DNA of 64,000 bases from Deltaproteobacteria bacterium HGW-Deltaproteobacteria-4 (GTDB taxonomy: Bacteria > Desulfobacterota > Desulfuromonadia > Desulfuromonadales > UBA2197). The translations under genes and the position numbers were made by a program. The stretch spans positions 201,604 to 265,603 of the forward strand of contig PHAV01000002.1 of assembly GCA_002841765.1 (NCBI GenBank), written 5' to 3'. Shown piece after piece: positions 9,723 through 38,965 of this stretch. The notes under the pieces were generated by a model, which had not been told where the DNA came from, searched no databases, and worked only from the letters and a program-made list of their open reading frames with translations. The first letter of the stretch is position 1. Each line of letters opens with the position of its first letter.

Positions 9723-9810
9723 CGCAGATAACATCTGAAGAGGCATGATTAAGCATAGAGTTAAATGTTTAGACCAATCGGAAGTTATCAGTTTTGATCA
9801 GCGTCCCATG
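9723..9810. repeat. Dispersed non-coding repeat family B, copy 1
   Basis: 9733-9810 aligns by hand to 38886-38965 at 62/80 columns, same orientation. Confidence 0.75.
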
Positions 9811-10201
9811 GTACTGGTTCAGATTTTCATAGATTCGGGAGTCTGCGTCTCTTGATTTAAACCTAAGTATTCATAATCTTATATATTTATTGGCTTTAGT
9901 TGCTGTAAGGGGAAAAGTAAAGGATTTTCTAAATTATTTTTTTCAAATTAAAATATAAGTCATATAGTCTACATTAGCAATATTGCTAAGTTAGAAAAAA
10001 TTGTTTTGCCCCGCCAAACATCCTGAACTCCTCCCCCCCTTGCATAAAACTGCTCTTTCCCCCCATAGTTTGATTAAGTAAATCCCCTACTTTTGACTGG
10101 GGAATCTACCCGTCGCGTTGTGAGCTAATTTCTGCCGGTTGGGCAGTTTAGTGCTGATTGACTTTTTATTGCATTGAATTATTTTAATTCAGGGAGGTTT
10201 C

Positions 10202-10780
10202 ATGCGTTCACTATTCTTGCGGGGTTTTATCCTCCTTGCCCTCCTTGGCGGCTTGCTGCCGTCCAGCCTCTGTCACGCAGCTGACACCAGATATAAACGT
10301 TCGGTAGAGAAATATACGATTCCGGATGTGACCCTGACCAATCAGGATGGCAAAAAAGTTCAGCTGAAGTCCCTCCTTGAAGCCGACCATCCCGTTGTTG
10401 TCGACTTTATCTATGGCACCTGTACCACCATCTGTCCGGTTCTCTCTGTCGGTTTTCTCAATCTGCAAAAGAAAGTCACGGCCAGCGGCGGCAAGGTGAA
10501 GCTGGTCTCGATCACGATCGACCCGGAAAATGATAACCCCAAGATCTTGAAAGAATATCTGCAGCGTTATCGCGCCAAGCCGGGCTGGGATTTCCTGACC
10601 GGCAGTCGTGCGGACATCAATACGGTGATGCGGGCCTTTGATGCCTATATTCCCGACAAGATGTCGCACTATCCGATCAACCTCATCCGTTCCCCCAAGG
10701 ACGGCAGCTGGGTGCGTCTCTTCGGCATCATGAGCGGCAAAGAGTTTATAGACGAGTATCAACAGGTGACAGGGAAATGA
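10202..10780 (+). CDS. SCO1/SenC-family copper chaperone, exported
   Basis: Signal peptide, DVTLTNQDGK, CxxxC (CTTIC), VSITIDPENDNP, WDFLTG, conserved His (MSH). Confidence 0.9.
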   Translation: MRSLFLRGFILLALLGGLLPSSLCHAADTRYKRSVEKYTIPDVTLTNQDGKKVQLKSLLEADHPVVVDFIYGTCTTICPVLSVGFLNLQKKVTASGGKVKLVSITIDPENDNPKILKEYLQRYRAKPGWDFLTGSRADINTVMRAFDAYIPDKMSHYPINLIRSPKDGSWVRLFGIMSGKEFIDEYQQVTGK

Positions 10781-12474
10781 CCCGCATCGGGATATTCTTG
10801 CTTGTCTGGTTTTTCATCTCCTTCGGACCGCGCGCTCAGGCCGAGGACCAGGGGATGACGACCAAGCTCAGCAATGCCGAGATCATGCGTCTCGGCGAAC
10901 AGATGTACCGGTATGGCCTTCTCCCTTCCGGTGAACCGATGGAAGCCTTCATTCGTGGCGATATTCCCGTCGACAGCACGGCTTTTTCGTGCTCCAGCTG
11001 CCATCTGCGCGCCGGACTGGGATCTTATGAAGGGGGTGTCGTCACCCCGCCGACCACCGGGCGCCGGCTTTATCAACCCTATCGGCGGCCCCCCTCCTTT
11101 GATGACGTCATTGACCAGGCCGGCCGTTATGTTTATGCCAAGACCATCCCGCATCGCGGCGCTTATAGCAAAGAGAGTCTGGCGATTGCTCTGTGGAATG
11201 GCATCGACCCGGGCGGCCAGGAGTTCAATCCGGTCATGCCGCGTTATCTGCTGTCTGAGCGCGATATGGATATTTTGATCCGCTATCTCGAAGAGCTCTC
11301 GGCGAACGATTCACCCGGAGTGACCGGGTCTTCTTTTTCTTTTGCGACGATTATCACCGACGATGTCAGCGCCGAAGACCGTCAGGCCTTGCTCGTCCCC
11401 CTCGAGCGCTTTGTCGCCGCAAGAAATCAGCAGGTCCGGATGTATGACGATTTCATCAAGTTCGGTTATACCCCGACGAACGATATGAAGTATGCCTTCC
11501 GTCCGGCGTCGCTGACCGTCTGGGAGCTCAAGGGGCCGCCGGAGACCTGGCCGGACCAGTTGCAGGCCTATTACGACAAGGGACCGGTCTTTGCCATCCT
11601 TGGCGGGATATCCAATAGCGATTGGCGCCCGATCCACGAATTTTGCGAAGCGCAGCGTTTGCCTTGTCTCTACCCGATCACCAATTACCCGGTGGTCTCC
11701 GAAACGGATTGGTACACCGTCTATTTCAACAAAGGTTTTTATCAGGAAGGGGAGGGGGCGGCCCTTTACCTGAAGAATAGCGAAGACTTCTCCGAAGATG
11801 ACAAAATTCTGCAGCTGGTGCAGGATTCCCTCGCCGGCAAGGCTCTGTCCGCCGGATTTGACAATACCTGGAGCAACTTGCAGCGCCCGGCGGCCAAGAC
11901 TCTCCTCCTCAGTAAAGAACAGCTCCTTGACCAAAAGTTTTTGGCGGCCCTGTTGAAAAAGAATAAAGCCGATGTCCTGCTCCTCTGGGGCGACGGCGAT
12001 CTGGTCCCGGCGCTGCCGGCCATCGTCTCCAAGCTGGCGGCCGGAGCGCAGATCTTTGTTTCATCGACCTTCCTCGGCAAAGAAACCTCCTTGATCGCCG
12101 AATCAATCCGGAGCCGGGTCTTTATTACCTTTCCGTTTCGGTTGACCCCTTTTGTCGGTTCCAAAGAGAGTTTTGACGCCAAGGTTCCGACTCTGACCAC
12201 CGCCAAAGATTTCGGTGACCGCAGGATCACCAGTCGCACCGAGACCATGCTGCAGCAGTCCGCTCTGCAGGGGTTAAAACTCCTTTACGACAACCTTTTT
12301 CGCGATTATTTACTGGATGTCATGAGCATGCAGATGGATCAAATCGTCTTTGATTATGAACGTCTCAGTTTTGGTCCCGGACAACGCTACACCTCTAAGG
12401 GATGTTACATCCTGCAGCTCGGCGCAGGAGCGGATCCGCAGTTAATCCCCCGTAGTGAGTGGGTGATGCATTAA
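10777..12474 (+). CDS. Monoheme c-type cytochrome fused to a periplasmic-binding-protein-like domain
   Basis: Signal peptide, single CxxCH (CSSCH), MPRY distal Met, C-terminal alpha/beta region (VFAILGG, LPCLYP); ATGA overlap with SCO gene. Confidence 0.75.
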   Translation: MTRIGIFLLVWFFISFGPRAQAEDQGMTTKLSNAEIMRLGEQMYRYGLLPSGEPMEAFIRGDIPVDSTAFSCSSCHLRAGLGSYEGGVVTPPTTGRRLYQPYRRPPSFDDVIDQAGRYVYAKTIPHRGAYSKESLAIALWNGIDPGGQEFNPVMPRYLLSERDMDILIRYLEELSANDSPGVTGSSFSFATIITDDVSAEDRQALLVPLERFVAARNQQVRMYDDFIKFGYTPTNDMKYAFRPASLTVWELKGPPETWPDQLQAYYDKGPVFAILGGISNSDWRPIHEFCEAQRLPCLYPITNYPVVSETDWYTVYFNKGFYQEGEGAALYLKNSEDFSEDDKILQLVQDSLAGKALSAGFDNTWSNLQRPAAKTLLLSKEQLLDQKFLAALLKKNKADVLLLWGDGDLVPALPAIVSKLAAGAQIFVSSTFLGKETSLIAESIRSRVFITFPFRLTPFVGSKESFDAKVPTLTTAKDFGDRRITSRTETMLQQSALQGLKLLYDNLFRDYLLDVMSMQMDQIVFDYERLSFGPGQRYTSKGCYILQLGAGADPQLIPRSEWVMH

Positions 12475-12619
12475 GTAAAAAACGCGCAGGAACAACACAA
12501 AGACCACTTATGGGACAAAGTCGTCCTGAATAGTTATAAATGGCGCAAAACTGGTCTGTTGACACTGTCGTCGATAGCCAAAGATTTTTAGAAACAACAA
12601 AGATTTGGGAGGTATTTTA

Positions 12620-15600
12620 ATGAAGAAACAAGTGTCGAAAGTTTTTTGGAGGCTGGGGCTGTTCACCGCCCTGACAACCCTTGGAGGGGGGCTGGCGTTT
12701 GCGGCTGACACAGTCGAGGATCCGATTCTCGCTGCGAAAACCGCTCAGGTTTATAGCCAGATGGAGCAGCGCGTCACCGATGAAGAGCGGGCCCAGGCAG
12801 CGGCGGCCCTCAAGGCTTTGCGCATACAGGTCTATGAAGCCAAAAAGGCGGTCGCCAAGTCGAAGGATGGCGCTCCGGCCAAAGGGATCGAAGTGCTTGA
12901 TTTCAAAGCCATCCCCACCGGCCCCTTTGACGCCAATGGCAAACCGTCCGTTCCCGACTACTACACCACCGCCAACTGGGCGAACAGTCCCCCTTTGGCG
13001 AAATTTGTCGATACCCTGCCGGGTCTTGGCCCGGACAATGCCAACAATCTCGGCAAATATCTGCCGGTTGCGGTCCCGGATACCGTGACTTATCCGGGCT
13101 CGGACTATTACGAGATCGATCTCGTCGAATACAATCAGCAAATGCACTCCGACCTCCCCAAATCAGGGACCAAGCTCCGTGGTTACGTGCAGGCCAACGT
13201 CAATGGGGGAAGCAACACGGCCTGTGGGAACGAGACTGGCGTCGAGTGTAATGATCCCATGCCGGTTCTTTATCTCGGTCCGGTGATCGTCTCCGAAAGA
13301 GACCGTCCGGTCCGCATCAAGTTCACCAACCGTCTCCCGAATACCGGAGCCGGCGGCGATCTCTTTATCCCGGTTGACACCTCGGTCATGGGCGCCGGGA
13401 CCGGCCCGGCTTATATGGGGGTCAGTCGCGGTTTAGGTGAGCCTTGCAACAACGATGTCGAACCGAATGGCTGCGCTACGTATCCGCAGAATCGCGGTAA
13501 CATCCATATGCATGGCGGACGCACTCCCTGGATCAGTGACGGGACGCCGCATCAGTGGATTACTCCCGCCGATGAGAATACCCCCTTCGTTAAAGGGGTA
13601 AGTCTGCAGAATGTTCCGGATATGCCCGATCCGGGGGACGGCGCATCGACCTATTACTTCACCAACCAGCAAAGCGCCCGGTTGATGTTCTATCATGACC
13701 ATTCCTTCGGCATTACCCGCCTCAACGTTTATGTCGGTGGAGCCGCCGGATACCTGATCACCGATGAGTATGAACAGGAGTTGATTAACGATGGTCTTAT
13801 CCCCGAAGACCAGATCCCTCTGGTGCTGCAGGATAAAACTTTTGTCGATGCGTCCGAGATTCGCAAATACGATCCCCTCTGGAACTGGGGCAGCGGCGCC
13901 GTTGACCCGGTGACCAAAGTCCGCGAGCCGGTCGAAGGCGACCTCTGGCTGCCGCATGTCTATATGCCTGCCCAAACCTCGATCGCCGGCTTCGGCGGCG
14001 TCAATCCTTTCGGGCGCTGGATGTATGGCCCCTGGTTCTACCCGGCGACAGCCGTGGAAAAAGGACCGGTTGCCAACCCCTATTACGATCCGGATTGCAG
14101 CAGCACAGTCCCCTATATCCTTGCCGACTGCCAAACTCCCGGCCAGCCGGAACAGATCCCCGGCACTCCCAACACCTCGATGGGGATGGAAGCTTTTCAG
14201 GATAGCGTCGTCGTGAACGGGACAGCTTTCCCGACCCTGACGGTCGATCCCCGGGCTTATCGTTTCCGCATTCTTAATGCGGCCAGCGACCGCTTCTGGA
14301 ATCTCTCATTCTATGAAGCCGACTCTGACCCGAACAATATCAGCCCCGATCCACGCCTCGACCCGACTTCCCCGAGTTATCTGCCCGGTCGTTCCAACAG
14401 AACCGAAGTCAAAATCCTGCCGGCCTCCATTGATCTCGCCAAGCAGAACAATTGGCCGGAAAACTGGCCGGTTGACGGCCGCGACGGCGGCGTCCCCGAC
14501 CCCGCGACCAAGGGTCCGAGCTTTCTGCAGATCGGGACCGAAGGCGGTTTCCTGCCGAAACCGACCATCCGCGAGGCGCAGCCGGTCACCTGGATGAGCG
14601 ATCCCACCGCTTTCTGGGTCGGCGTGGTTGACAAAACCGGTCTGGCCCTCGGCCCGGCCGAGCGTGCCGACGTTATCGTTGACTTCAGCGCGTATGCCGG
14701 CAAAACCCTCATCCTTTACAACGATGCACCGGCCGCGTGGCCAGCTCGCGTGGCCAGCTACGATTACTTCACCGGCGCAGAAGATCTGCGTTCCGGCGGC
14801 GGTTACGGTGCCGGCGGAGTCTACAATCCGATCACCGGTGAATGGGAAGGCGGCCACGGCATTCTGCCCGGTTATGCCCCGAATACCCGGACGGTCATGC
14901 AGATCGTCGTCACCGGCGGCACCTCCGGCTTGGAGGCTGTCGATGAACCCTACGAATTCGACCCGGTTGCCCTGCATGAAGTGTTTGTCCCCACTGATCC
15001 GGAAACCGAAAGTCTCTTCTCCCGGGCCCAAGAGCCGATCATTGTCGGTCAAGCGGCTTATCAGGATGTGTATCCTGATTCCTACTTCCCGACCAACTTC
15101 CCCTGGGAAGGGGTCTCCCAGATTAACGACCAGATGCTTAATTTCGTGACGGTCAATAACACCGTTGACAACCCGCAGCATGTTGTCGCCATTCAGGAGC
15201 CCAAAGGGATTCATGATGAAATGGGCGCTTCTTTCGACCCGATCTACGGTCGGATGAGCGGTAACCTCGCCATGCAGTTGCCCAACCCCACCACCCTCAA
15301 TGCCCTGCTGATCCTTTATGGCTTCTCGGATATTCCGACCGAAGTCATCGAAAACTCGACAGAGCTGGATGTCAGTATTGTCCCCGGCACCACCACCCTG
15401 GCCGATGGCACCCAGATCTGGAAGATTTCGCACAACGGGGTCGATACCCACCCGATTCACTTCCATATCTTCGACGTGCAGTTGATCAATCGCGTCGGCT
15501 GGGATGGCCAGATTGCCCTCCCCGAAGAGAACGAGCTTGGCTGGAAAGACACCATCAAAGTCAGCCCGCTCATGGACACCATCGTTGCCGTACGGCCCCG

Positions 15601-18600
15601 TGCTCCGGCACTCCCCTTCGGCATCACCAACAGTCTGCGCCCGCTCAATCCAGCCATCCCGATCGATTCACCGATGGGCTTCAACAGCGTCGACTGGCAA
15701 ACCGGCGAAGCGAGAAACGAAGCGGTCACCAATGTCCTGTACAACTTCGGTTGGGAGTATGTCTGGCATTGCCACATCCTCAGCCATGAAGAGATGGATA
15801 TGATGCGGCCGATCGTGCTGAATGTCGCTACCGCCAAAGTGAGTGATTTCAGCTCCCCGGCCCCTGGCACTGCTCCGCAGGGTGTCGATGTCACCTGGAT
15901 GGATCCGACCCCGGTTGATTATGAAAATAATAGCGGTTTCGGCAATCCTGACAACGAAATCGGTTTCAAAATCTGGCGCTCCGCCGGCGCTACCGGCCCT
16001 TACACCAAGGTCGGCGCAGCTCTTGCCAACCAGACCACCTATAACGATAAAGACGGCTCCATTGCTGACGATTATGTCATCGAAGCTTTCAACGCCAGCG
16101 GCTCGACCTTCTCCTGGGTGAGTCCGGTCTCCCTTACTGTTGATGGCGGCTTTATTGCCCCGGCCACATTCACCCTGACGGCGACCGTCACACAGCCCTT
16201 GCTCCAGAGCGTCACCAAGGTGGAGTTCTTCAACGGCGACACCCTGATCGGCACTGATCTTGACGCTCCTTACACGGTCACTTTAACAGGGATGCAGCAA
16301 GGGTCTTTCGATTTAAAGGCGAGAGCCACGACCGATACACCGACAGAGAAAGGCCTTGAGGCTTTTGATACACTGACAGTCGATGTCAACACCAGTGGTC
16401 TGGCTGCTGATTTCACCGTCAATAACGGCGTTGAAATCGGCGTTTGTGATACCAGCACCCTTTATGACGCCAGCACCGGTGGCACCGCTACGGCCTGGGA
16501 ATGGCTGGTCAACGGCGTGACTTACACCACGCAAAATCCTGACCTCCCCGTCCTTCCGGCCGGGATTTACCCTGTCACCCTGAAAGTCACCGGCACCAGC
16601 GGTGAAGTCGCATCGGTGACCCAAGATGTAGAAATTGTCAATCATCCCCCGACCGCCGATGCCGGTGGACCGTACACGCTCAATTTTAATGGGACCGTTG
16701 CTCTTACAGGTTCCGGTGCTGATGCTCTCGATCCCTGCAACACCGCTTTCACCTATGCCTGGGATATTGATGGTGATGGAACATTTGAATATTCGCCCAA
16801 TCGGACGATCAGGTATTCCGTTATCCAGCCTTTACTTGGCTCGGGCGATTATCCGATCACCTTTAAAGTGACGGATTCAGGTGGTGCGTTTGCTACGGCT
16901 GATACAACTTTAAGTGTCGGGCCGGCACCGAATGCTGATGCTCCGGCAACCATCACTGTTCCGGCGTACAGTTCGACCGGCAGCTACACCATCTCCTGGG
17001 CTCCGGCAACCATCGTCGGCGCGACCTACACCCTCGAAGAAGCGACGGATAGCAATTTTACTAACGCCACCGTCGTCGCTTCCGGACTCACCACCACCTC
17101 AAAAGCGATTACCGGCAAGACCGGTGGTCTTTACTTTTATCGTGTCCAAACCATCGCCGTCGCCACCGTCCCCAGTACCTGGACCGCTGGTAATAACCCC
17201 TGCGCTATTCTGATCACGGCCATAACTGACCCTGTCAACGGCGCAAACTTCAATCCCGGCCAGTTGACGGCCATTGTCGGGACTGCGACCACCCCGACTG
17301 GTTATGTTGTCGCCAGCATGGCGTTTTACGAAAACGGTGTCCTGATCGGTACGGACAGCGATGGCGCACCTTATACCGTCGCTTACAACCCGACCAGTGG
17401 CGCCCACCTCCTGACCGCGACCACGACTTATGTTGGTGGCGCAGTATCGCCTTCATCTGATGTGGCGATTGCAATTGCCGGGGTCGATGCACCGGTCCTG
17501 ACCACAAGCAGCGCAATCTATGATCTTGGTGGCACCATCACCTTGAATGTCACACCGGCAGCCGTTGTCGGGGTTTTTCCTGTACCGACAGTTGTCGCTG
17601 TTGCCTACTATGAAAATGGCACACCCATTGGCTTTGATGACACTGCACCGTACAGCTTGGCCTGGGTACCGGCGACGGGTGGTGCAAAGGGTGTGACGGC
17701 TGTGGCTCTTTACAGCAATGGCATGTCAGCGACTTCGGCGGTGTTGTCGTTGTCATTGAACACGCAGGTTGCTGCTCCTGGTTTGATTTCTGTGCCAACC
17801 ACTAGTCCGACCGGGACTTATACAGTATCGTGGGGAGCCTCGGCGACGAGTGAAGTGACTTATGTGCTGGAAGAGTCTACGACAAATACTTTTGATGTCG
17901 TGACGTCACATCTGCCATCTAATTGGGCAACGACATCATTTGATATTATGGGAAAGTCTGGCGGGACATATTACTATCGCGTCTCGGCTGTGAAAGCCCC
18001 AATGGTAGCTAGTAATTGGACTGTTGATGGGAATGGTATATTTGTCGGTGCTCAAGCTCCTGCATTACTCAGCGTACCTGCGATCCCAACTAACGGGAAG
18101 GCCACCGTTCTGGCAGCAACCTCGCCAACACCTGGTGCAATATATCTCTTCGAATACAGCACTGACGGTTCGACTTGGACTGTAGCCTCTAATAGCACCA
18201 ATCGCGAGCCAATCATCACCTTACCGGCTCCGAATAACTACCAGTTCCGGGTTTCGGTGACAGCTACAGGCTATCAGCAGAGCAAATACACCGCTGGAAG
18301 TAATAATTGTAATTGGGTTGTTGTCCAAGCAACGGCACCGGTGACATTATCTGTTCCCGTAGCTCCAACCAACAGCAAGGTTGCTGTTCTGGCTGCGACC
18401 TCGCCGACGCCCGGTGCAATTTATCTTTTCGAATATAGTACTAACGGGGCGACATGGAGTATTGGCTCTAATAGTACTAATCGCGGGCCAACAATCACAT
18501 TGCCGGCACCCGGCAACTACCAGTTCCGGGTTTCAGTGACAGCAACCAATTTTACGCAGAGCGATTACACATCTGGCACTAATAACTGCAACTGGGTAGT

Positions 18601-19723
18601 CGTGCCAGCAACTGCACCTTCAACGCTATCTGTACCCCTGACTTCAACGAATGGGAAGGTCACGGTCCTGGCCGCAACCTCACCGACGCCGGGTGCTATT
18701 TATCTTGTCGAATACAGCACTAACGGATCGACCTGGAGTATCGGCTCCAATAGCACTAATCGCGGGCCAACCATCACACTGCCGGCACCTGGCAACTATC
18801 AGTTCCGGGTTTCAGTGACAGCAAGCAATTTTACGAAGAGCAGTTACACCCTTGGTAGCAACAACTGCAGCTGGGTAGCACCTCCTGCTACAGCACCGTC
18901 GTCTTTAAGTGTCCCTGCAATATCAACCAACGGAACAGTTGCATTGTTGGCGTCAATCTCTGCGACACCTAGTGCTATTTATTTGTTCGAATACAGTGTT
19001 GACGGTTCGACTTGGAGTACTGGCTATAGCGGTACAAATATTAACCCAACCATAACCCTGCCGGCTTCTGGCAACTACCAGTTCCGGGTTTCAGTAACAT
19101 CAGCAGCCTTTTCACAAAGTACGTTCACAATGGGCGGTAACAACTGTTATTGGTCAGGTGTAGTCCAGGCAGCGGCGCCAACAAGCCTGTCTGTACCCGT
19201 AGCGCCAACCGATGGAAAGGTTACGGTACTGGCCGCAACCTCGCCAACGCCGGGCGCGATTTATCTTGTCGAATACAGTACCGACGGTTTGACCTGGTCG
19301 AGTATCGGCTCAAATAACAGCGGACGCCAACCAACTATCACCCTGCCTGCCCCTGGCAACTACCAGTTCCGTGTTTCGGTGACAGCCGCAGGATATGCAC
19401 AAAGCACTTACACTGCCGGTAACAATAACTGCAATTGGGTGATTGTACCTGCAACGGCACCAGCGACACTGTCTGTGCCTTTAACTACAACGATCGGGAA
19501 GGTCACGGTTCTGGCCGCTACCTCACCGACGCCGGGTGCTATTTATCTTGTCGAATACAGTACCGACGGTTTGACCTGGTCGAGTATCGGCTCTAATAAC
19601 AGCGGACGCGAACCAACCATCACACTGCCAGCACCTGGTAACTATCAGTTCCGCGTATCGGTGACCGCAACGAACTTCACACAAAGTGGTTTCACCACTG
19701 GCAGTAATAATTGTAGCTGGTAG
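12620..19723 (+). CDS. Giant secreted multicopper oxidase (OmpB-like) with Ig-like, PKD, Fn3 domains and six C-terminal repeats
   Basis: All four MCO copper motifs: HMH (13505), HDH (13694), HPIHFH (15449), HCHILSHEEMDM (15767); Sec-type signal ending AFA; RBS GGAGG before ATG 12620. Confidence 0.92.
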   Translation: MKKQVSKVFWRLGLFTALTTLGGGLAFAADTVEDPILAAKTAQVYSQMEQRVTDEERAQAAAALKALRIQVYEAKKAVAKSKDGAPAKGIEVLDFKAIPTGPFDANGKPSVPDYYTTANWANSPPLAKFVDTLPGLGPDNANNLGKYLPVAVPDTVTYPGSDYYEIDLVEYNQQMHSDLPKSGTKLRGYVQANVNGGSNTACGNETGVECNDPMPVLYLGPVIVSERDRPVRIKFTNRLPNTGAGGDLFIPVDTSVMGAGTGPAYMGVSRGLGEPCNNDVEPNGCATYPQNRGNIHMHGGRTPWISDGTPHQWITPADENTPFVKGVSLQNVPDMPDPGDGASTYYFTNQQSARLMFYHDHSFGITRLNVYVGGAAGYLITDEYEQELINDGLIPEDQIPLVLQDKTFVDASEIRKYDPLWNWGSGAVDPVTKVREPVEGDLWLPHVYMPAQTSIAGFGGVNPFGRWMYGPWFYPATAVEKGPVANPYYDPDCSSTVPYILADCQTPGQPEQIPGTPNTSMGMEAFQDSVVVNGTAFPTLTVDPRAYRFRILNAASDRFWNLSFYEADSDPNNISPDPRLDPTSPSYLPGRSNRTEVKILPASIDLAKQNNWPENWPVDGRDGGVPDPATKGPSFLQIGTEGGFLPKPTIREAQPVTWMSDPTAFWVGVVDKTGLALGPAERADVIVDFSAYAGKTLILYNDAPAAWPARVASYDYFTGAEDLRSGGGYGAGGVYNPITGEWEGGHGILPGYAPNTRTVMQIVVTGGTSGLEAVDEPYEFDPVALHEVFVPTDPETESLFSRAQEPIIVGQAAYQDVYPDSYFPTNFPWEGVSQINDQMLNFVTVNNTVDNPQHVVAIQEPKGIHDEMGASFDPIYGRMSGNLAMQLPNPTTLNALLILYGFSDIPTEVIENSTELDVSIVPGTTTLADGTQIWKISHNGVDTHPIHFHIFDVQLINRVGWDGQIALPEENELGWKDTIKVSPLMDTIVAVRPRAPALPFGITNSLRPLNPAIPIDSPMGFNSVDWQTGEARNEAVTNVLYNFGWEYVWHCHILSHEEMDMMRPIVLNVATAKVSDFSSPAPGTAPQGVDVTWMDPTPVDYENNSGFGNPDNEIGFKIWRSAGATGPYTKVGAALANQTTYNDKDGSIADDYVIEAFNASGSTFSWVSPVSLTVDGGFIAPATFTLTATVTQPLLQSVTKVEFFNGDTLIGTDLDAPYTVTLTGMQQGSFDLKARATTDTPTEKGLEAFDTLTVDVNTSGLAADFTVNNGVEIGVCDTSTLYDASTGGTATAWEWLVNGVTYTTQNPDLPVLPAGIYPVTLKVTGTSGEVASVTQDVEIVNHPPTADAGGPYTLNFNGTVALTGSGADALDPCNTAFTYAWDIDGDGTFEYSPNRTIRYSVIQPLLGSGDYPITFKVTDSGGAFATADTTLSVGPAPNADAPATITVPAYSSTGSYTISWAPATIVGATYTLEEATDSNFTNATVVASGLTTTSKAITGKTGGLYFYRVQTIAVATVPSTWTAGNNPCAILITAITDPVNGANFNPGQLTAIVGTATTPTGYVVASMAFYENGVLIGTDSDGAPYTVAYNPTSGAHLLTATTTYVGGAVSPSSDVAIAIAGVDAPVLTTSSAIYDLGGTITLNVTPAAVVGVFPVPTVVAVAYYENGTPIGFDDTAPYSLAWVPATGGAKGVTAVALYSNGMSATSAVLSLSLNTQVAAPGLISVPTTSPTGTYTVSWGASATSEVTYVLEESTTNTFDVVTSHLPSNWATTSFDIMGKSGGTYYYRVSAVKAPMVASNWTVDGNGIFVGAQAPALLSVPAIPTNGKATVLAATSPTPGAIYLFEYSTDGSTWTVASNSTNREPIITLPAPNNYQFRVSVTATGYQQSKYTAGSNNCNWVVVQATAPVTLSVPVAPTNSKVAVLAATSPTPGAIYLFEYSTNGATWSIGSNSTNRGPTITLPAPGNYQFRVSVTATNFTQSDYTSGTNNCNWVVVPATAPSTLSVPLTSTNGKVTVLAATSPTPGAIYLVEYSTNGSTWSIGSNSTNRGPTITLPAPGNYQFRVSVTASNFTKSSYTLGSNNCSWVAPPATAPSSLSVPAISTNGTVALLASISATPSAIYLFEYSVDGSTWSTGYSGTNINPTITLPASGNYQFRVSVTSAAFSQSTFTMGGNNCYWSGVVQAAAPTSLSVPVAPTDGKVTVLAATSPTPGAIYLVEYSTDGLTWSSIGSNNSGRQPTITLPAPGNYQFRVSVTAAGYAQSTYTAGNNNCNWVIVPATAPATLSVPLTTTIGKVTVLAATSPTPGAIYLVEYSTDGLTWSSIGSNNSGREPTITLPAPGNYQFRVSVTATNFTQSGFTTGSNNCSW
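18044..19720 (+). repeat. Six tandem intragenic repeats of 279-282 bp (93-94 aa)
   Basis: Units start at about 18044, 18323, 18602, 18881, 19163, 19445; consensus AP..LSVP....GKVTVLAATSPTPGAIYL.EYST.G.TW...PTITLPAPGNYQFRVSVTA..NNC.W. Confidence 0.95.
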
Positions 19724-21430: not shown

Positions 21431-21443
21431 TGGAATATTTTTT

Positions 21444-33329: not shown

Positions 33330-33333
33330 GGGG

Positions 33334-33885: not shown

Positions 33886-33887
33886 TT

Positions 33888-34649
33888 GTGCAGATTTCCA
33901 TCATCACCGCCAGCTACAATGCTGGTGCCACCATCACCGACTGCCTCAAAAGCATCAACTTTCAGACCACGCCGGTCGAGCATCTCATCATCGACGGCGC
34001 TTCCACCGATAACACCCTTGAACTCGTCCGGCAAATCAGTCCGCACGCCCGTATCCTCTCCGAACCTGACCGCGGTATTTACGACGCCATGAACAAGGGA
34101 ATCCGTCTGGCCAGCGGCGACATTATCGGCATCCTCAATGCCGATGATTTTTATGCCTCCCCCGATGTTCTCGCCCAAGTGGCAGCGGTCTTTGCAGACC
34201 CGACCGTTGCCGCCTGTTACGGCGATCTGCAATATGTTCAGGGGGGTGTGGGAGAAAAACCAACGGAATGCTTTAAAGTTGTCCGGCACTGGCAGTCCGA
34301 TCCCTTTTGCAGGTCAAGGTTTCTGTGGGGCTGGATGCCGCCGCACCCGACTTTCTTTGTGCGGAAAGAGATCTATGAACAGTACGGTACTTTCCGCCTC
34401 GACCTCGGTTCTGCGGCTGATTATGAGCTGATGCTCCGTCTTCTTTTCAAGCACCAGATCAAGGCGGTCTATATCACGCAAGTTCTGGTCAAGATGAGGG
34501 TAGGGGGGGTTAGCAATGCGAGTCTGAAAAACCGGATCACGGCGAACCTGATGGATCGCCGTGCCTGGGAGGTGAATGGGCTGAAGCCTTACCCGTGGAC
34601 GCTGCTGATGAAACCGCTACGCAAGTTGCGGCAGTTTTTGCAGCGATGA
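33888..34649 (+). CDS. Glycosyltransferase family 2 (WcaE-like)
   Basis: ISIITASYN, IDGASTD, EPDRGIYDAMNKG, LNADD, GWMPPHP, ADYELMLR; GTG 33888. Confidence 0.9.
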   Translation: MQISIITASYNAGATITDCLKSINFQTTPVEHLIIDGASTDNTLELVRQISPHARILSEPDRGIYDAMNKGIRLASGDIIGILNADDFYASPDVLAQVAAVFADPTVAACYGDLQYVQGGVGEKPTECFKVVRHWQSDPFCRSRFLWGWMPPHPTFFVRKEIYEQYGTFRLDLGSAADYELMLRLLFKHQIKAVYITQVLVKMRVGGVSNASLKNRITANLMDRRAWEVNGLKPYPWTLLMKPLRKLRQFLQR

Positions 34650-34670
34650 ATCGGAGGTCAAAATCAATTT

Positions 34671-34760
34671 GCCGCGGTGAAAATCTGTAAAAATCTGTTA
34701 GGACGGAAGCCATAGCTTTTTTGGTTAAACCAACAGACCTTGACAGATTTTCACCGCGGC
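34671..34760. repeat. Repeat family A, copy 1: 90-bp element with perfect 18-bp terminal inverted repeat
   Basis: GCCGCGGTGAAAATCTGT ... ACAGATTTTCACCGCGGC; internal TTGGTT-A-AACCAA palindrome. Confidence 0.9.
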
Positions 34761-34904
34761 TCATCGGCCTGAGAAGATATTATCAGAAGTCGATCTCGCC
34801 AGAAGTAGGCGCCCCGAGGCGAGTGAGCCAAGCGAACGTGCGAGACAAAGCTTTTCGTGCGGTGTTTAAAAGCGAATGGTCCCATTTTCCCAGGAGAAGT
34901 TGTC

Positions 34905-35153
34905 ATGCCTGAAATATGTCGCTTTCTTGGTATTGTTATCAGTATGTATTTTGATGAACACAACCCGCCACTCTTTCACGTCAAGTATAATGAACATAAA
35001 GCAGTCGTAGCGATATAAACCCTCAACATTCTGGACGGTCATCTCCCTGCCCGTGTCCGCGGGCTTATTGAAGAATGGGCAGAGTTACATCAGGATGAAT
35101 TGCTGAGCATGTGGGAATCACAAGAATTTCATAAAATTAAACCACTTGTCTAG
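34905..35153 (+). pseudogene. DUF4160-like gene with in-frame TAA at codon 38
   Basis: MPEICRFLGIVISMYFDEHNPPLFHVKYNEHKAVVAI*TLNILDGHLPARVRGLIEEWAELHQDELLSMW; AGGAG RBS; TAA at 35016-35018. Confidence 0.8.
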
Positions 35154-35163
35154 GAGGCCTGCC

Positions 35164-35457
35164 ATGATCGAGGTACTTGAGGCGGCATATCAGGAAGAAT
35201 ACAAAGTTTGGTTAAGATTCAACACCGGCGAAAGCGGCGTTGCTGATCTTAAGGATTTATTGCTCAAGTATAAAGTGGCCGCACCGCTCATTGATCAAAA
35301 TGAATTCAAAAAGTTTTACCTGGATGAATGGCCGACGCTGGCGTGGCCATGCGGTTTTGATGTTGCCCCGGAAACTCTGTATGAACGGGTCACCGGCAAA
35401 CGGCCAGATTGGCAGCAGTCAGCAATGGTCCATGAGGCACGAGAAGATTACAAGTAG
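35164..35457 (+). CDS. DUF2442-like protein (partner of DUF4160)
   Basis: YKVWLRFNTGESGVADL, TLAWPCGFDVAPETLY; ATG 35164 after AGGAGG. Confidence 0.8.
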   Translation: MIEVLEAAYQEEYKVWLRFNTGESGVADLKDLLLKYKVAAPLIDQNEFKKFYLDEWPTLAWPCGFDVAPETLYERVTGKRPDWQQSAMVHEAREDYK

Positions 35458-35495
35458 AGGCTCGTTCTCAAGATTCTCTCCGAGTCCTCTGTCCC

Positions 35496-35660
35496 TGGCA
35501 TACGGTGGTCAGCCTCGAAGCCGGCTCGGTCTTTTACGAAGCCAAACCTGGTCCCTTTGATCCCAGCCACAAAAGTGACATGGCGAGCTGGGCTCCGGAA
35601 GAAGGGAGCCCGGAACCGGCGTTCTTCTTCAAAGCGCTAAAGGGAACAAGCACCTTTTAA
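35496..35660 (+). pseudogene. 3' remnant of a WbuC-like cupin gene
   Basis: WHTVVSLEAGSVFYEAKPGPFDP..KSDMASWAPEEGSPE resembles the WbuC cupin C-terminus; no start or 5' half. Confidence 0.6.
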
Positions 35661-35723
35661 TAAAGCCAAAAGGAGCCAGCCGGCAGTCGCCGCATAGATT
35701 GTTTGGGAGACACGTTTTTTATT

Positions 35724-36092
35724 TTATTTCCGGTCTGATACGAAGGGGAGCAGTTGGCGAAGGGCTGCTATTATTTTATCCTGATCCGGGCTGGCGAGTT
35801 TTCCAGCTTTTCTGATAATCAACTTTTCGTCCAAGGTAAAGAGTTTCATCCGTATCACGGAAGGGGAGGGCAGGCCGGCAGAATCAAGATTTTGGATTTC
35901 AATATCCAGGGGCCAACCTGAATTTTTGGCACTGGTAATCATCGCCATGACGGCCTGGCCAACTTGGCAATTAAAGACCTGAGCATCGGAGAGAATCAAT
36001 GCCGGTCGGCGCTTGGTTGTGTTTTTGTCCGTAAAGGGGAAGGGGACAACAACCACATCGAAGGCATCAAAGTTCACGGTAGGCCTCTTCAT
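35724..36092 (-). CDS. PemK/MazF-family toxin
   Basis: DVVVVPFPFTD..TKRRPALILS, MITS, GLPSPSVIR. Confidence 0.9.
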   Translation of the reverse strand: MKRPTVNFDAFDVVVVPFPFTDKNTTKRRPALILSDAQVFNCQVGQAVMAMITSAKNSGWPLDIEIQNLDSAGLPSPSVIRMKLFTLDEKLIIRKAGKLASPDQDKIIAALRQLLPFVSDRK

Positions 36093-36297
36093 CGGCAGCT
36101 GATTCCCATTCGTTCAACGTCCCTTTCAGTGCCTCGGCAAAGACCAGATCCACAGGTCTTGCTTTTCTGAGGAGTATCTGATGACCCTCAATCTCAAAGG
36201 CAATGGCATCACCGGCTTTCAGGTGCAGTACTTTGCGGACCGGTTCCGGAATGGTTGCTTGATATTTTGATGTGATTTTGCTTGTCGCCGTTGCCAT
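36067..36297 (-). CDS. AbrB/MazE/SpoVT-family antitoxin
   Basis: SKITSKYQATIPEPVRKVLHLKAGDAIAF; acidic tail; ATG 36297 with AAGGAGG RBS; overlaps toxin start. Confidence 0.88.
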   Translation of the reverse strand: MATATSKITSKYQATIPEPVRKVLHLKAGDAIAFEIEGHQILLRKARPVDLVFAEALKGTLNEWESAADEEAYREL

Positions 36298-36315
36298 GGT
36301 TATGACCTCCTTTTT

Positions 36316-36348
36316 GGTAATACTAGCATTACCTGGTGCGTGTCGCAA
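36316..36348 (-). promoter_or_regulatory. sigma70 promoter with palindromic operator for the mazEF-like pair
   Basis: Minus strand TTGCGA-N17-TAGTAT; GGTAAT-N6-ATTACC (36316-36333) overlaps the -10. Confidence 0.7.
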
Positions 36349-36461
36349 GGTTGAGGGGGAGGAAGGTCAAAGGGGACAGGCACCCTTTAATGAGTCCACA
36401 AGAAGACAGTCCCTGTTCTCTGGCGGCTACTGATCTTGGAACTGACTGAATGGAAGATCGA

Positions 36462-36501
36462 TTGACCTGATAAGATGTACGTGATACGTTGTACATCACG
36501 T
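36462..36501 (+). promoter_or_regulatory. sigma70 promoter with overlapping palindromes for the phd-vapC pair
   Basis: TTGACC-N17-TACGTT; GATGTAC-N10-GTACATC and ACGTGAT-N9-ATCACGT span the -10. Confidence 0.7.
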
Positions 36502-36516
36502 TTACTGGAGGTCAAT

Positions 36517-36759
36517 ATGAGATCTTTATCCGTATCATCAGCGCGTAGCCAACTGCCGTCCCTTCTTGATGATGTTTTTACCAAGCACGAAACCATCATT
36601 ATCAGTCGTAAAGGAAAGCCTGTTGCCCAACTGACGCCAATCCCGTCCGATGCCTCTCTGGATGAAAGCAAACGCTTTCCCCTGCGGAGTATTGCCATTT
36701 CCATTGCTGACGATTTTGATGAACCGGCTCCGGAATTGTGGGAGGCGTTAGAGTCATGA
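36517..36759 (+). CDS. Phd/YefM-family antitoxin
   Basis: SVSSARSQLPSLLDDV...IIISRKGKPVAQLTPI, DDFDEP; ATG 36517 after GGAGG. Confidence 0.88.
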   Translation: MRSLSVSSARSQLPSLLDDVFTKHETIIISRKGKPVAQLTPIPSDASLDESKRFPLRSIAISIADDFDEPAPELWEALES

Positions 36760-37151
36760 TTGTGCTTGATACGCATGTCTGGCTCTGGTGGTTGCATGAT
36801 CCTGCCAAATTATCACCGACTGCTGTTAAGTTAATTGAGCAAGAGCAAGAATTAGGAGCGCTTATCCTCTCTTCTATCTCTATCTGGGAGGTGGCAGTCA
36901 AGGTCCAATCGGGCAGACTAGCTATTCCCATGGAGATATTGCAGTGGTATGAGTTGGCAAGAAGTTATCCAGCAACAGTGATTGAGCCACTTTCGCCCGT
37001 CGATGCTATTGCCAGCACTCAACTTCCCGGTGATTTTCATAAAGACCCAGCGGATCGAATGATTATCTCTCTCGCCCGGCGGTTGGCCATACCGCTTATT
37101 ACCTGCGATCGAAAAATCCTTGAGTACAAACATGTCCTGACTGCTTGGTGA
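36756..37151 (+). CDS. vapC: VapC PIN-domain toxin
   Basis: IVLDTHVWLWW, SISIWEV, FHKDPADRMI, LITCD; ATGA overlap with antitoxin. Confidence 0.92.
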   Translation: MIVLDTHVWLWWLHDPAKLSPTAVKLIEQEQELGALILSSISIWEVAVKVQSGRLAIPMEILQWYELARSYPATVIEPLSPVDAIASTQLPGDFHKDPADRMIISLARRLAIPLITCDRKILEYKHVLTAW

Positions 37152-37155
37152 ATTT

Positions 37156-37302
37156 GGCAAGCGCTCTATCACTGCTGATACCGCCTTGCGGCTGGGGCTT
37201 TATTTTGGGGTGTCTCCGGAACATTGGCTGAATCTGCAAACGGATTATGATTTGCGGGTTGCCCGGCGGCCGGCCGGAACCGGCGACCTTGATGGAAAGT
37301 GA
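37156..37302 (+). pseudogene. 3' remnant of a HigA-family antitoxin
   Basis: GKRSITADTALRLGLYFGVSPEHWLNLQTDYDL; the upstream frame is closed by TGA at 37138 and the N-terminal HTH part is missing. Confidence 0.75.
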
Positions 37303-37314
37303 ACAAGGCGTGAT

Positions 37315-37611
37315 CTAACTGCGGGATTTGATGCGGTTGGGATTTTGTTTCCCATGGAGACAGGCAATGATGACGATGTTCTCGTTGGTGATGATATAAA
37401 AAATCCCGTATGGGAACCTGCGCAGTAATGCCCTTTTTACAGTGCGATAAACAGTGGCATACATGGCGGGATTGCGGGCAATAGAGGCAATACAAACGTC
37501 AACGGCCCGAAGATACTCCGTTCCTAGTCCAGGATTTTGCTGGTCATACCAGATAGCCGCTGCCGCTATATCCGCTTCAGCTTGCTTCCGGACAACAATT
37601 TTGAGGTTCAT
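37315..37611 (-). CDS. RelE/ParE-family toxin
   Basis: AEADIAAAAIWYDQQNPGLG.EY, RALLRRFPYGIFY, IIACLH. Confidence 0.88.
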   Translation of the reverse strand: MNLKIVVRKQAEADIAAAAIWYDQQNPGLGTEYLRAVDVCIASIARNPAMYATVYRTVKRALLRRFPYGIFYIITNENIVIIACLHGKQNPNRIKSRS

Positions 37612-37829
37612 ACCCTACGCCATAAACGGGAGCGGACTTCATCCCAGGATGATTGTTCCTGGGGTTGTTGTGCGTACTCTTCAAGACGTTGATCTAATTC
37701 GTATTTTATGTCCGATGTTAGTTCAACCTTCTCTGGTTGGATGGCGATACTATCCCAAATATCTTCTACCAATTGAATCCGCTCCGGGATACTTAAGGAA
37801 AACAAGTCTTCAGCGGTTATTTGCGGCAT
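37608..37829 (-). CDS. Addiction-module antitoxin (TIGR02574-like)
   Basis: LSIPERIQLVEDIWDSI, ELDQRL, SWDEV; ATG 37829 with AAGGAG RBS; overlaps parE start. Confidence 0.85.
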   Translation of the reverse strand: MPQITAEDLFSLSIPERIQLVEDIWDSIAIQPEKVELTSDIKYELDQRLEEYAQQPQEQSSWDEVRSRLWRRV

Positions 37830-37938
37830 CGTGGTTATCTCCTTCGAAGTCATGCGTAACGCTTTGGATGAATATATATCATGACATCCGGAAAAATCTT
37901 AAGTTGAAAATTTGTTTCTCGGTTCGTTTGGCGGAAGC

Positions 37939-37969
37939 GAAGTGATCAGATTTTGATCCGCGTGCGATG
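37939..37969. repeat. Repeat family B, partial copy
   Basis: GAAGTGATCAGATTTTGATCCGCGTGCGATG, near-identical to 38936-38965. Confidence 0.8.
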
Positions 37970-38001
37970 ATTGTTGTTACTGCTAAGGTCAGAACTATTT
38001 T

Positions 38002-38094
38002 GCCGCGGTGAGAATCTATGAAAATCTGTCAGGGCGAAAGCTAAAAGCTTGTTTTTGGTTAAACCAACAGACCTTGACAGATTTTCACCGCGGC
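38002..38094. repeat. Repeat family A, copy 2
   Basis: GCCGCGGTGAGAATCTATGAAAATCTGTCA ... TTGGTTAAACCAACAGACCTTGACAGATTTTCACCGCGGC; the last 40 nt are identical to copy 1. Confidence 0.9.
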
Positions 38095-38112
38095 TAATTT
38101 GTTTGTGAAGTA

Positions 38113-38147
38113 ATATTATCAGAACTTATCAGATTTGATCCGCGTGC
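38113..38147. repeat. Repeat family B, partial copy following A2
   Basis: ATATTATCAGAACTTATCAGATTTGATCCGCGTGC; ATATTATCAGAA also follows A1 at 34777. Confidence 0.75.
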
Positions 38148-38173
38148 GGCGATGGGTGATTTTGAGTTTTGCG

Positions 38174-38202
38174 TTGACATACCGCACTGCCAATCGTACT
38201 AT
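38174..38202 (+). promoter_or_regulatory. Near-consensus sigma70 promoter for the last TA pair
   Basis: TTGACA-N17-TACTAT. Confidence 0.75.
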
Positions 38203-38238
38203 TCATGGTGTTGTTAAGCGCTTTATGGGAGGTGAGGT

Positions 38239-38499
38239 ATGAATACGATTTCAGCCAACGAATTGAAGACCAAGGGTGTTGCTTCGATTGAGTCGGCTTT
38301 AGCGAAGGGTGCGGAGGCGATTATTTCGGTGCGTGGCCAAGAGCGTTATGTGGTCATGAATCTGGACGAGTATAACCGGTTGAGGGTCTGCGAACTTGAA
38401 TCAGCCCTCTACGAAACGCGGCAGGAGTTTGCAGCCGGCGCGTTTGTCGAGGAGAGCGTGGATGAGCATATCGCGCGGATCCGGACGGCGGCGAGATGA
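38239..38499 (+). CDS. Phd/YefM-family antitoxin
   Basis: MNTISANELKTKG, IISVRGQERYVVM; GGAGG RBS. Confidence 0.82.
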   Translation: MNTISANELKTKGVASIESALAKGAEAIISVRGQERYVVMNLDEYNRLRVCELESALYETRQEFAAGAFVEESVDEHIARIRTAAR

Positions 38500-38771
38500 G
38501 CTTTCGGATCATCTATACCGATGCTTATCTGAAGCGCGCTACAAAGTTTATCAAGCGACATCCCGAAATTCTCCCTCAGTATGAAAAAACCCTGAAACTG
38601 CTGGAACTCAACCCGTCACACCCGTCTCTTCGCTTGCATCGTCTTGGTGGGGCTTTGCGGGATCTGCATTCAGTATCGATCAACATCAGCTATCGAATGA
38701 CCCTGGAGTTTTTTCTCGATGACGAGATGATCGTTTTGGTGAACGTCGGCAGTCATGATGACGTTTATTGA
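38496..38771 (+). CDS. RelE-superfamily (YafQ-like) mRNA interferase toxin
   Basis: LLELNPSHPSLRLHRL, SVSINISYR, C-terminal VGSHDDVY; ATGA overlap. Confidence 0.82.
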   Translation: MSFRIIYTDAYLKRATKFIKRHPEILPQYEKTLKLLELNPSHPSLRLHRLGGALRDLHSVSINISYRMTLEFFLDDEMIVLVNVGSHDDVY

Positions 38772-38809
38772 TGTTGGAATCGGATAACATCCCAAGGCCA
38801 TAACCCTTC

Positions 38810-38838
38810 GCCGCGGCGAGAATCTATGAAAATCTGTC
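38810..38838. repeat. Repeat family A, left half only
   Basis: GCCGCGGCGAGAATCTATGAAAATCTGTC, 28/29 identical to the start of A2. Confidence 0.8.
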
Positions 38839-38875
38839 TCGCTTGCAGTTACCAATATCTTAAAGACTTATTGGA

Positions 38876-38965
38876 CGCAGTTAAAATCTGAAAAGGCATG
38901 ATTTTAAACACAAAGCTAATTGATTGGTTCAATCAGAAGTGATCAGATTTGATCCGCGTGCGATG
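38876..38965. repeat. Repeat family B, full copy 2
   Basis: Homologous to 9723-9810 (62/80 in the core alignment). Confidence 0.75.

Follow-up and report, generated by a model that had tools for sequence, protein, structure and literature searches.

Small palindromic repeats at the edges of a strain-variable polysaccharide locus in a Geobacter-like bacterium

Geobacter genomes harbour many multicopy families of intergenic sequences, including paired inverted sites composed of tandem short repeats, which in G. bemidjiensis are found in 12% of the intergenic regions (PMC2700814, PMC2996986). Here we analyse a window of 64,000 nucleotides (the whole stretch of contig PHAV01000002.1 from Deltaproteobacteria bacterium HGW-Deltaproteobacteria-4 under study), in which two copies of an intergenic repeat, family B, stand at 9.7 and 38.9 kb on the two sides of a polysaccharide gene block. 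In a preliminary description these outer copies, B1 and B4, were regarded as the ends of a swappable serotype cassette, whose loss by recombination between the repeats would be counter-selected by a toxin–antitoxin (TA) array. This interpretation finds partial support, in that the repeats are located at the margins of a strain-variable region and that TA arrays belong to those margins. On balance, the bracketing probably results from repeats and breakpoints sharing the same junction DNA and not from a matched pair of excision/integration sites.

Among the closest described systems are two groups of intergenic elements. The “paired global-regulator binding sites” of Geobacter share with the elements analysed here the clade, the intergenic location and the arrangement as opposite-strand pairs of sites, each built of several short units in tandem and separated by a spacer of variable length, and in both cases several of them occur per gap and near accessory genes (PMC2700814, PMC2996986). 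The published classes differ in their units (GTTGCTYN, TCTCCGTS, MTYCTGA and CCYTC, with 7–8-nt periods), and their function is conjectured. MITEs (miniature transposable elements with inverted repeats), such as Chunjie of Geobacter uraniireducens, Correia and ERIC (PMC3184786), are similarly small, non-coding and multicopy, with inverted ends and hairpin potential; they are present or absent depending on the strain and insert between operon genes, including those of envelope polysaccharide loci. Chunjie differs in its size (178–235 bp), its 21-bp terminal inverted repeats and its 9-bp direct repeats, and for the elements analysed here neither a target duplication nor a parent insertion sequence was found, each genome has few copies, and arms often occur solo.

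The outer copies and the breakpoints around them

From left to right, the locus comprises the genes for phosphomannomutase, CpsB, Wza, Wzc and a UDP-sugar dehydrogenase (8409–9692), then those for SCO1, a 565-aa protein and a 2372-aa Big_7/PKD/Cu-oxidase protein, followed by wzx, ~13 glycosyltransferase or sugar-modifying genes and five TA pairs (34857–38771), and finally a GT4 WecA-like gene (39135) and tex. The gene identities given in the preliminary description (Wza, Wzc, dehydrogenase, SCO1, Wzx, glycosyltransferases, the five TA pairs and the GT4 WecA-like product) were confirmed. The two outer elements, both on the + strand, are the following:

9711–9817, + strand: B1, a full B-type element with the left arm GGGCGCAGATAACATCTGAA and the right arm TTATCAGTTTTGATCAGCGTCC(CATGG)
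38864–38972, + strand: B4, a chimera of a B-type left half (38864–38940) and a canonical right arm (38941–38965, GATCAGATTTGATCCGCGTGC)

The distance from the dehydrogenase stop (9692) to B1 is 19–31 nt and that from the end of B4 to the WecA-like gene is 170 nt, in agreement with the placement given before (~30 and ~170 nt). Global alignment of 9733–9810 with 38886–38965 reproduces exactly the 62 matches in 80 columns reported earlier. Over the full extents of B1 and B4, the similarity amounts to 75% over 102 nt in blastn and to 79/109 identical positions (72%) in a global alignment, the longest common exact run being 10 nt. The local alignment score is 51, with a maximum of 17 for ~3000 random segments of the window (mean 8.1, sd 1.6). 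The similarity noticed just upstream is also real, as the CGCAGnTAAnATCTGAAnAGGCATGA motif occurs at 9723 and 38876 only, with a chance expectation of 0. B1 and B4 are each more similar to copies of JAXMLA01, the closest reference genome (86/109 and 87/111), than to each other.

Since the two copies are 72% identical with a 10-nt longest run and have nearer relatives elsewhere, they do not represent att-like products that arose in one event, nor do they offer homologous excision a usable substrate. RecA-dependent recombination requires roughly 20–30 identical bases or more, and, judging by their sequences, B1 and B4 in their present state cannot cause the block to be deleted at an appreciable rate, which speaks against the proposed loss by repeat recombination. 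No deletion joint was found in the contigs of six sequencing runs (X1–X4, X7 and X8), which is a weak test because contigs drop rare variants, and in no relative is the dehydrogenase joined to wecA, other content being present at 9693 and 38941.

On the left side, four relatives (loci L084–L087; 93% amino acid identity of the dehydrogenase) share everything upstream of 9693 and lose the similarity at this point, after the stop codon and 18 nt before B1. Beyond the dehydrogenase, L084 carries a TA array of AbiEii, PIN and two MNT/HepT pairs. B1 is absent from L084–L088; L088 (95%) has a mini A-like palindrome in its place and nevertheless retains SCO1 together with the 565-aa and giant genes (~71% nucleotide identity). 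The SCO1 module is kept in two relatives, L088 and JAXMLA01, and the stretch from 10184 to ~16900 is conserved in L088 and L004. JAXMLA01 (L060) has a B1 ortholog after the dehydrogenase (87.5% over 8383–9816), and there the dehydrogenase follows the last glycosyltransferase gene and not wzc.

On the right side, L082 and L083 (WecA 92–93%) are 91% identical to the window over 38941–50740. Their similarity starts at 38941, which is the first base of the B4 right arm, and upstream of it they have other sugar genes and another TA array, in which the PemK/MazE (35666–36349) and Phd/PIN (36419–37159) cassettes recur at 93–95%, reordered among other TA pairs. The left half of B4 is strain-specific, and its right arm is common to the relatives. 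In a relative present in run X8, the Phd/HigB-like cassette still has a right arm on either side, one of them being the inner copy B3; the inner repeats B2 and A2 are missing from it (joint 37917->38122), as is the half family A element together with the left part of B4 (joint 38786->38933). In L096 and L097 (88%) the same last TA cassette lies 140 nt from wecA with no A or B element between them; in L095 (90%) a different repeat precedes wecA, and in L098 (70%) ParDE does so.

We read B4 as a hybrid because the identity with L082 and L083 begins at 38941 and because the terminal pair of the palindrome is broken (G-G) in B4 only, among 38 aligned elements. On this evidence B4 is chimeric: its left half is of the B type and its right arm is the canonical one resident at this site, with which the broken pair fits.

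The bracketed stretch had been described as the accessory part of the locus with the copies as its exchange boundaries. Relatives do differ there, but the SCO1 module is conserved and the G+C content falls from 0.55–0.61 to 0.46–0.52 only from ~18–20 kb, and for these reasons the exchanged unit is not the whole 9.7–38.9 kb. Likewise, the breakpoint at 9693 adjoins one copy and that at 38941 lies inside the other, as had been expected, but these positions are not equivalent within the copies, and the copies are absent in relatives. TA arrays at the cluster edge recur in the relatives with shuffled content.

Three observations concern the flanks themselves. The AT-rich segment 9840–10184 upstream of SCO1 is unlike the matching region of L088 and L004, which resemble each other, so this strain has had the SCO1 operon's promoter region replaced. 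In L086 and L087 (5150–6700), cpsB is reduced to a 51-nt match and the phosphomannomutase region is called as an opposite-strand gene; therefore, the “conserved” left flank varies too. Finally, TA or abortive-infection genes stand at one or both locus edges in every relative examined, with a different content each time (AbiEii, PIN, MNT/HepT, Phd/PIN, PemK/MazE, ParDE, HEPN/Polbeta), for example in L084 at 11469–16000, in L082/L083 at 2800–9760, in L096 at 3660–6562 and in L098 at 8379–8887.

Anatomy and distribution of the palindromic family

Family B is a subtype of a palindromic intergenic element of ~100–130 nt. In its canonical form the left part reads (tCAAAAcCGTT)KCACGCGGATAAC-WTCKGAT-AAAATCTGAT... 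and is followed by a variable centre and the right part ...TTTATCCGCC-TTTATCCGAAG-TTATCAGATTTGATCCGCGTGC(AAnGnTTTTGa), the arms being arrays of TTATCnGA units with a period of 10–11 nt and with the highly conserved ends GCACGCGGAT...ATCCGCGTGC. The B subtype has the ends GGACGCWG...CAGCGTCC and the centre AAAGGCATGATTTAAAC; it is itself weakly palindromic (left arm CGCAGnTAAnATCTGA, right arm TCAGATTTGATCCGCG), and the arms of family A (GCCGCGGTGAAAATCTGT / ACAGATTTTCACCGCGGC) are similar to those of B. When the canonical Geobacterales palindromic element is defined by the right arm TKATCAGWTTTGATCMGCGTSC and a complementary left arm (G[CG]ACGC[GAT]GAT) 70–120 nt upstream, both B1 and B4 are its members; they can be aligned at full length with 36 other members, and the arms are invariant at 26 columns.

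The consensus arms are complementary at 15/17 positions, and the canonical hairpin contains two conserved mismatches. RNAalifold revealed three covarying arm pairs (CG29/GC8, GC29/UA4 and GC12/UA12), which represent covariation of the arm ends between the subtypes and one more pair within the canonical type. As single-stranded DNA, the canonical and the A elements have a much stronger fold than their shuffles (z from -3.9 to -7.4). B1 (z -0.4) and B4 (z -1.3) fold no better than shuffles and are therefore considered degraded copies. Apart from this degradation of B1 and B4 themselves, the family has the terminal inverted repeats and the small non-coding body of MITEs, and it is polymorphic for presence or absence at orthologous sites (B1, B2 with A2, the half-A with the B4 left part, and the A before the dehydrogenase).

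The scans for promoters and terminators detected no such signals within B1 and B4. A short open reading frame (ORF) starting from AGGCATGATT inside B was rejected, as the copies do not conserve it. Rfam at gathering thresholds gave no family match in the whole window, and in the E-value mode, applied to 37850–39140 and five element-rich loci, there was only generic hairpin (miRNA) noise on A2. The supplements to the genome papers on G. metallireducens and G. bemidjiensis did not contain the arm strings, and in the literature searched these matched only unrelated primers. We know of no good fit to a DnaA box, a Fur box, the IHF consensus, dif or the Tn7/Tn402 ends.

A scan with TKATCAGWTTTGATCMGCGTSC covering one genome per species detected the exact 22-nt right arm (TKATCAGATTTGATCMGCGTSC) in 78 stretches of ~37 assemblies, nearly all of them metagenome-assembled genomes (MAGs) of Geobacteraceae/Desulfuromonadales with one to seven exact-arm loci each. 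A matching left arm accompanies 51 copies, and solo arms and tandem arrays are also seen. The exact arm was found, in addition, in several contigs of three Nitrospirota MAGs and on single contigs binned as Gammaproteobacteria, Rhodanobacteraceae and Fusobacteriaceae. Outside the main clade the unchanged 22-mer is often a solo arm (contigs L033, L035, L041, L042, L053, L054, L062, L063, L067, L075, L077, L078 and L080), and its occurrence in distant bins could reflect horizontal spread, strong constraint or mis-binning.

The fetched loci contain 96 element clusters, including 29 simple left–right pairs and 48 solo arms, the rest being tandem or mixed with up to 7 arms. The flanking ORFs are diverse (145/176 unique), and the recurrent neighbours are PDDEXK_3 “GxxExxY” genes and the TA/defence genes HipBA, NTP_transf_8, Fic and AIPR. 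The orientation of right arms with respect to the neighbouring genes has no useful bias (41:35 downstream, 44:25 upstream). At least five genomes have a nuclease-like PDDEXK_3 gene beginning ~20–45 nt after a right arm, and behind this gene there is often another element (L007 5046–5477, L013, L029 2295–2721, L031, L037 3164–3636, L055 5283–5730), which suggests a multicopy gene family linked with the elements.

Within the window, an arm profile (nhmmer) detects four right arms only, every one on the + strand. For the source metagenome, all Logan contigs of the run holding the strain at ~100x were compared with a B-type reference at a likeness of at least 80%, and it was matched by the B1 and B4 contigs only, both regions being at single-copy depth; the canonical reference attracted one 45-nt contig. 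A metagenome scan with the pattern of the B left half gave 0 matches, and a second one with the WecA protein found relatives at 35–41% only. Three of the four exact-arm contigs of JAXMLA01 come from the same polysaccharide locus, in which wzc is followed by B copies, some of them tandem, and others lie on both sides of the dehydrogenase and ahead of SCO1, in a different gene order. An abundant generic intergenic repeat, named in the preliminary description as the case that would count against it, is not what these data indicate: B is a low-copy, locus-associated subtype of a widespread family. Given its low copy number in the source metagenome and its restriction in two genomes to this locus, we consider B a junction-associated repeat, which is an occasional recombination substrate and not an excision site.

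The observed anatomy, distribution and divergence of the elements, the chimeric B4, the presence or absence of copies in relatives and the positions of the breakpoints are best accounted for as follows. On this view B1 and B4 are both old copies, by now diverged, that belong to a lineage-specific subtype of a MITE/REP-like palindromic intergenic element (REP, repetitive extragenic palindrome), and family A is a sister type with related arms. Such elements presumably settle and duplicate locally in the long non-coding gaps between the polysaccharide modules and the TA array, and it is in these gaps that strains differ. The cluster itself is probably replaced via recombination in its conserved flanks, that is, in the dehydrogenase gene on the left and in the wecA leader on the right. 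The short arms may now and then serve as crossover points, from which the hybrid B4 could have originated.

Several points weigh against this explanation. Direct repeats at the element ends were found in none of 44 copies: the flanks tCAAAAcCGTT / AAnGnTTTTGa belong to the palindrome, which just extends ~14 nt outward, and no target-site duplication is seen. No transposase or REP-associated tyrosine transposase (RAYT) gene was seen in the inspected loci, although RAYT itself was not searched for, and no parent insertion sequence with matching ends was noticed in the 8-kb loci, whole genomes not having been searched. The B-type count for the source organism covers the window and the metagenome contigs. 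A generic selfish repeat would be expected to show less specificity than the B-type, whose copies are confined, in two genomes, to one locus. Last, the exactness of the 22-mer across phyla, together with breakpoints at its 5' edge in three lineages, fits a protein-recognised site better than it does a passive repeat.

Other features of the locus

Besides B1 and B4, the following features were recognised:

8267–8342, - strand: half family A element between wzc and the dehydrogenase gene, 80–83% identical to A1/A2 and inverted
9693–38940, + strand: non-collinear stretch without a collinear counterpart in the closest relatives, with the SCO1/565-aa/2372-aa module, wzx, sugar-modifying genes and the TA array
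9820–9836, - strand: family A arm fragment (CAGATTTTCATAGATTC) directly after B1, 17/17 identical to 38012–38028 and 38820–38836, inverted
34655–34776, + strand: A1, full palindrome of family A directly behind the last glycosyltransferase gene, where the TA array begins
34857–38771, mixed strands: TA array of DUF4160/DUF2442, PemK/MazE (-), Phd/PIN, ParE/Unstab_antitox (-) and Phd/HigB-like pairs
37939–37976, + strand: B2, a solo right arm with one extra T
37986–38110, + strand: A2, full palindrome of family A flanked by B2 and B3 (z -5.6)
38114–38158, + strand: B3, a solo right arm upstream of the Phd/HigB-like cassette
38794–38849, + strand: half family A element just past the last toxin gene, absent in the X8 relative and in L096/L097
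38966–39134, + strand: conserved 5' leader of the WecA-like gene, with a small GAGGGC...GCCCTC hairpin followed by a TGTGCTATTAAT...GGATGGGG region

B2 and B3 correspond to the partial copies flanking A2 that had been recognised before (37939–37976 and 38114–38158, both of the 3' part). The DNA hairpin of A1 has -29.8 kcal/mol and z -7.4, and the A right-arm region 38048–38111 reaches ~3.8x the single-copy depth in the source run X1. The Phd/HigB-like cassette has its own sigma-70-like promoter at 38174–38202. The conservation of the WecA leader was assessed by aligning the upstream regions from the window, L082, L083, L095 and L098.

Upstream of the dehydrogenase, family A is full, half or absent among the relatives: at the site of the half A of the window L088 has a full A, and in L084–L087 the segment 8123–8372 is wholly missing. 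The order of B followed by an A arm, seen at B1, is also found in L020, L021 and L065. An A arm lies within ~15–40 nt of a B-type element in L020, L021, L046 and L065, as after B1, and therefore the A and B types travel together.

Other repeats are present as well. The short repeats GGGGACAGGCACCTTTTAATGAAGCCAAAAGGAGCCAGTCCCC and GGCAGCCGGCCGGAACCGGCGMCCTT lie at most TA-cassette junctions of the window (35600–35689, 36370–36413, 37262–37294) and of the relatives (L082 5440–5475, 5970–6010 and 8842–8916; L095 ~80–110), marking more of these junctions than A or B. Another family (...TCTCNCCAGAAGTAGGCGCYCCGAGGCGAGTGAGCMAAGCGAACGGGCGAGAG and GTTTCTCGCAGAGCCCGCAGAGACCACAGAGAGAAAAC) fills gaps beside the dehydrogenase and the TA array in the window (34790–34848, 35460–35500) and in several relatives (L060 1840–2070, L084 11300–11440, L088 4880–4905). 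A terminator-like hairpin TTTAGCTCCCCTCCTTTYTTAAGGAGGGG follows two genes (1022–1050 and 8128–8156); its stretch reaches ~27 times the single-copy depth in the source metagenome, with many contigs ending inside, and it is therefore a high-copy repeat.

Within the TA array, 37156–37276 is a remnant of an HTH_3 gene, with a 121-nt match to an intact 96-aa gene of L082 (6851–7141), and the 234 nt preceding this match (L082 6752–6986) are missing from the window; therefore, the array holds decayed cassettes. The 2372-aa protein (12605–19723) has Big_7, PKD and Cu-oxidase_2 domains, and its C-terminal end consists of six tandem repeats of 279–285 nt (93–95 aa) with 61–86% identity (18074–19720), inside which the regional G+C drop begins. 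In the block genes from 9.7 to 39 kb Pfam detected no recombinase domain, and the proteins of 565 and 487 aa have no informative domain; no tRNA gene is present as an island target. The ops sequence GGCGGTAG has four matches in the window, all in coding regions and none intergenic.

Rival readings and comparison with known systems

It is conceivable, though unlikely, that the B-type elements are cis-regulatory sites, that is, platforms for a regulator or nucleoid protein or leader structures ahead of the SCO1 operon, the TA cassette and wecA, and have nothing to do with exchange. In both genomes every B copy has the orientation of the genes, and the copies stand upstream of SCO1, the Phd cassette and wecA, and in JAXMLA01 upstream of the dehydrogenase and SCO1; local tandem duplication, however, also yields co-orientation, and the canonical family has no orientation bias to downstream gene starts (41:35). 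The 10–11-nt period of the arms would put the sites on one helix face, and for anatomically similar paired sites the binding of IHF/HU-type proteins was proposed by Aklujkar et al. (PMC2700814). The restriction of the B-type to this locus also agrees with a local regulatory role, but the element is missing before the same genes in close relatives (before SCO1 in L088, before wecA in L095 and L096), and neither promoter- or terminator-like signals in B1/B4, nor an Rfam match, nor an intergenic ops was found.

A site-specific system, in which the 22–24-nt right arm would be a recognition or crossover site like attC or a Xer-dependent pdif, shuffling TA/defence cassettes and perhaps polysaccharide modules, with the B and A elements as paired or degenerate versions of the site, seems rather improbable to us. 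The breakpoints speak for it: the L082/L083 similarity starts exactly at the 5' edge of the arm, and in three lineages three unrelated sequences stand upstream of the same arm before wecA, but L096 joins the same cassette to wecA without any arm. The Phd/HigB-like cassette of the X8 relative is located between two solo right arms in direct orientation, and in L082/L083 a left-arm-like sequence and a right arm enclose a TA array of 4.7–6.1 kb; nevertheless, most junctions of TA-array cassettes carry other repeats, not arms, and the cassettes lie on both strands. Arrays of the type element–gene–element with PDDEXK_3, HipBA, NTP_transf_8, Fic and AIPR, the identity of the 22-mer across phyla and the covariation of the hairpin with its two conserved mismatches would also suit a recombination site. 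On the other hand, no recombinase was found in the window or beside the arrays in the inspected loci, the ends deviate from the R''/R' consensus of attC, and many elements have ordinary genes as neighbours. We find improbable the stronger proposal in which the arm (TKATCAGATTTGATCCGCGTGC), base-exact in Geobacterales as well as in Nitrospirota, serves a hitherto unrecognised recombination system as its target or as its crossover site. Such a system would insert and shuffle TA, defence and polysaccharide modules immediately 5' of the arm, with the palindromic elements as paired forms of the site and the B-bracketed block as one large product.

That B1 and B4 are the ends of one swappable 29-kb cassette, lost by recombination and protected by a TA array selecting against this loss, is very improbable: it agrees with the direct orientation of the copies and their position at the outer limits of the strain-variable region, with the detection of no other full B-type copies in the source metagenome and with the TA arrays consistently at the cluster edges of relatives, but the copies are 72% identical with a 10-nt longest run and are not mutual closest relatives, the breakpoints 9693 and 38941 fall at non-equivalent positions in them, one or both copies are missing in relatives, the SCO1 module is shared, the composition shifts at 18–20 kb, and no deletion joint is seen in the run contigs (a weak test).

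The locus can also be compared with known exchange systems. An attL/attR pair consists of near-identical direct repeats from one event, and B1 and B4 are not such a pair (79/109, 10-nt run); Pfam reveals no integrase or recombinase inside or beside the island among the genes from 9.7 to 39 kb, and no empty-site relative with a single repeat between the flanks was found. Cassettes of integrons and of clusters of attC sites lacking integrases (CALIN) include TA pairs. The attC sites share with the elements analysed here the imperfect palindrome of ~60–140 nt, conserved ends, a variable centre, folding as single-stranded DNA and a position between small accessory genes. They differ in their ends, RYYYAAC (R'') and GTTRRRY (R'), the boxes here being GGATAAC/GTTATCA or TCAAAAC/GTTTTGA; here the conservation also extends beyond the putative core, and most TA junctions have no element. 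Neither IntI nor another tyrosine recombinase was found in the scanned region of the window or in the inspected loci, and the cassettes do not form a co-oriented array.

Replacement of O-antigen and capsule clusters between flanks of the galF/gnd type resembles the present case in the variable low-G+C block of wzx and glycosyltransferase genes, the conserved export and precursor genes, the conserved initiating transferase and the breakpoints at the inner edges of the conserved flanks. The difference is that here there is no JUMPstart/ops and that TA arrays and palindromic repeats occupy the junctions. The JUMPstart leader comprises 39 nt and contains ops GGCGGTAG; in the window it has no Rfam match, and ops occurs only in coding regions. 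REPs and bacterial interspersed mosaic elements (BIMEs) are, like the elements analysed here, extragenic palindromes that form mosaic clusters of inverted units and act as hot spots of recombination and insertion-sequence insertion, but REPs have 20–40 nt and hundreds of copies, in genomes that encode a RAYT, and here the elements have ~100 nt with at most 7 exact-arm loci per genome.

We suggest that the locus is a serotype-like polysaccharide cluster of a groundwater Geobacter-like organism, exchanged between conserved flanks and not as a discrete island with matched ends, the edges of which are filled with TA cassettes and small palindromic repeats. The repeat family is not in Rfam, and its arm strings have no relevant match in the literature searched. 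Should the arm turn out to be a site of recombination or binding, the assembly of accessory arrays in this clade would find an explanation; otherwise the family would be one more selfish intergenic repeat, which chiefly breaks MAG assemblies. In its kind the element is a known one and belongs with the small palindromic intergenic repeats of Geobacter-like genomes.

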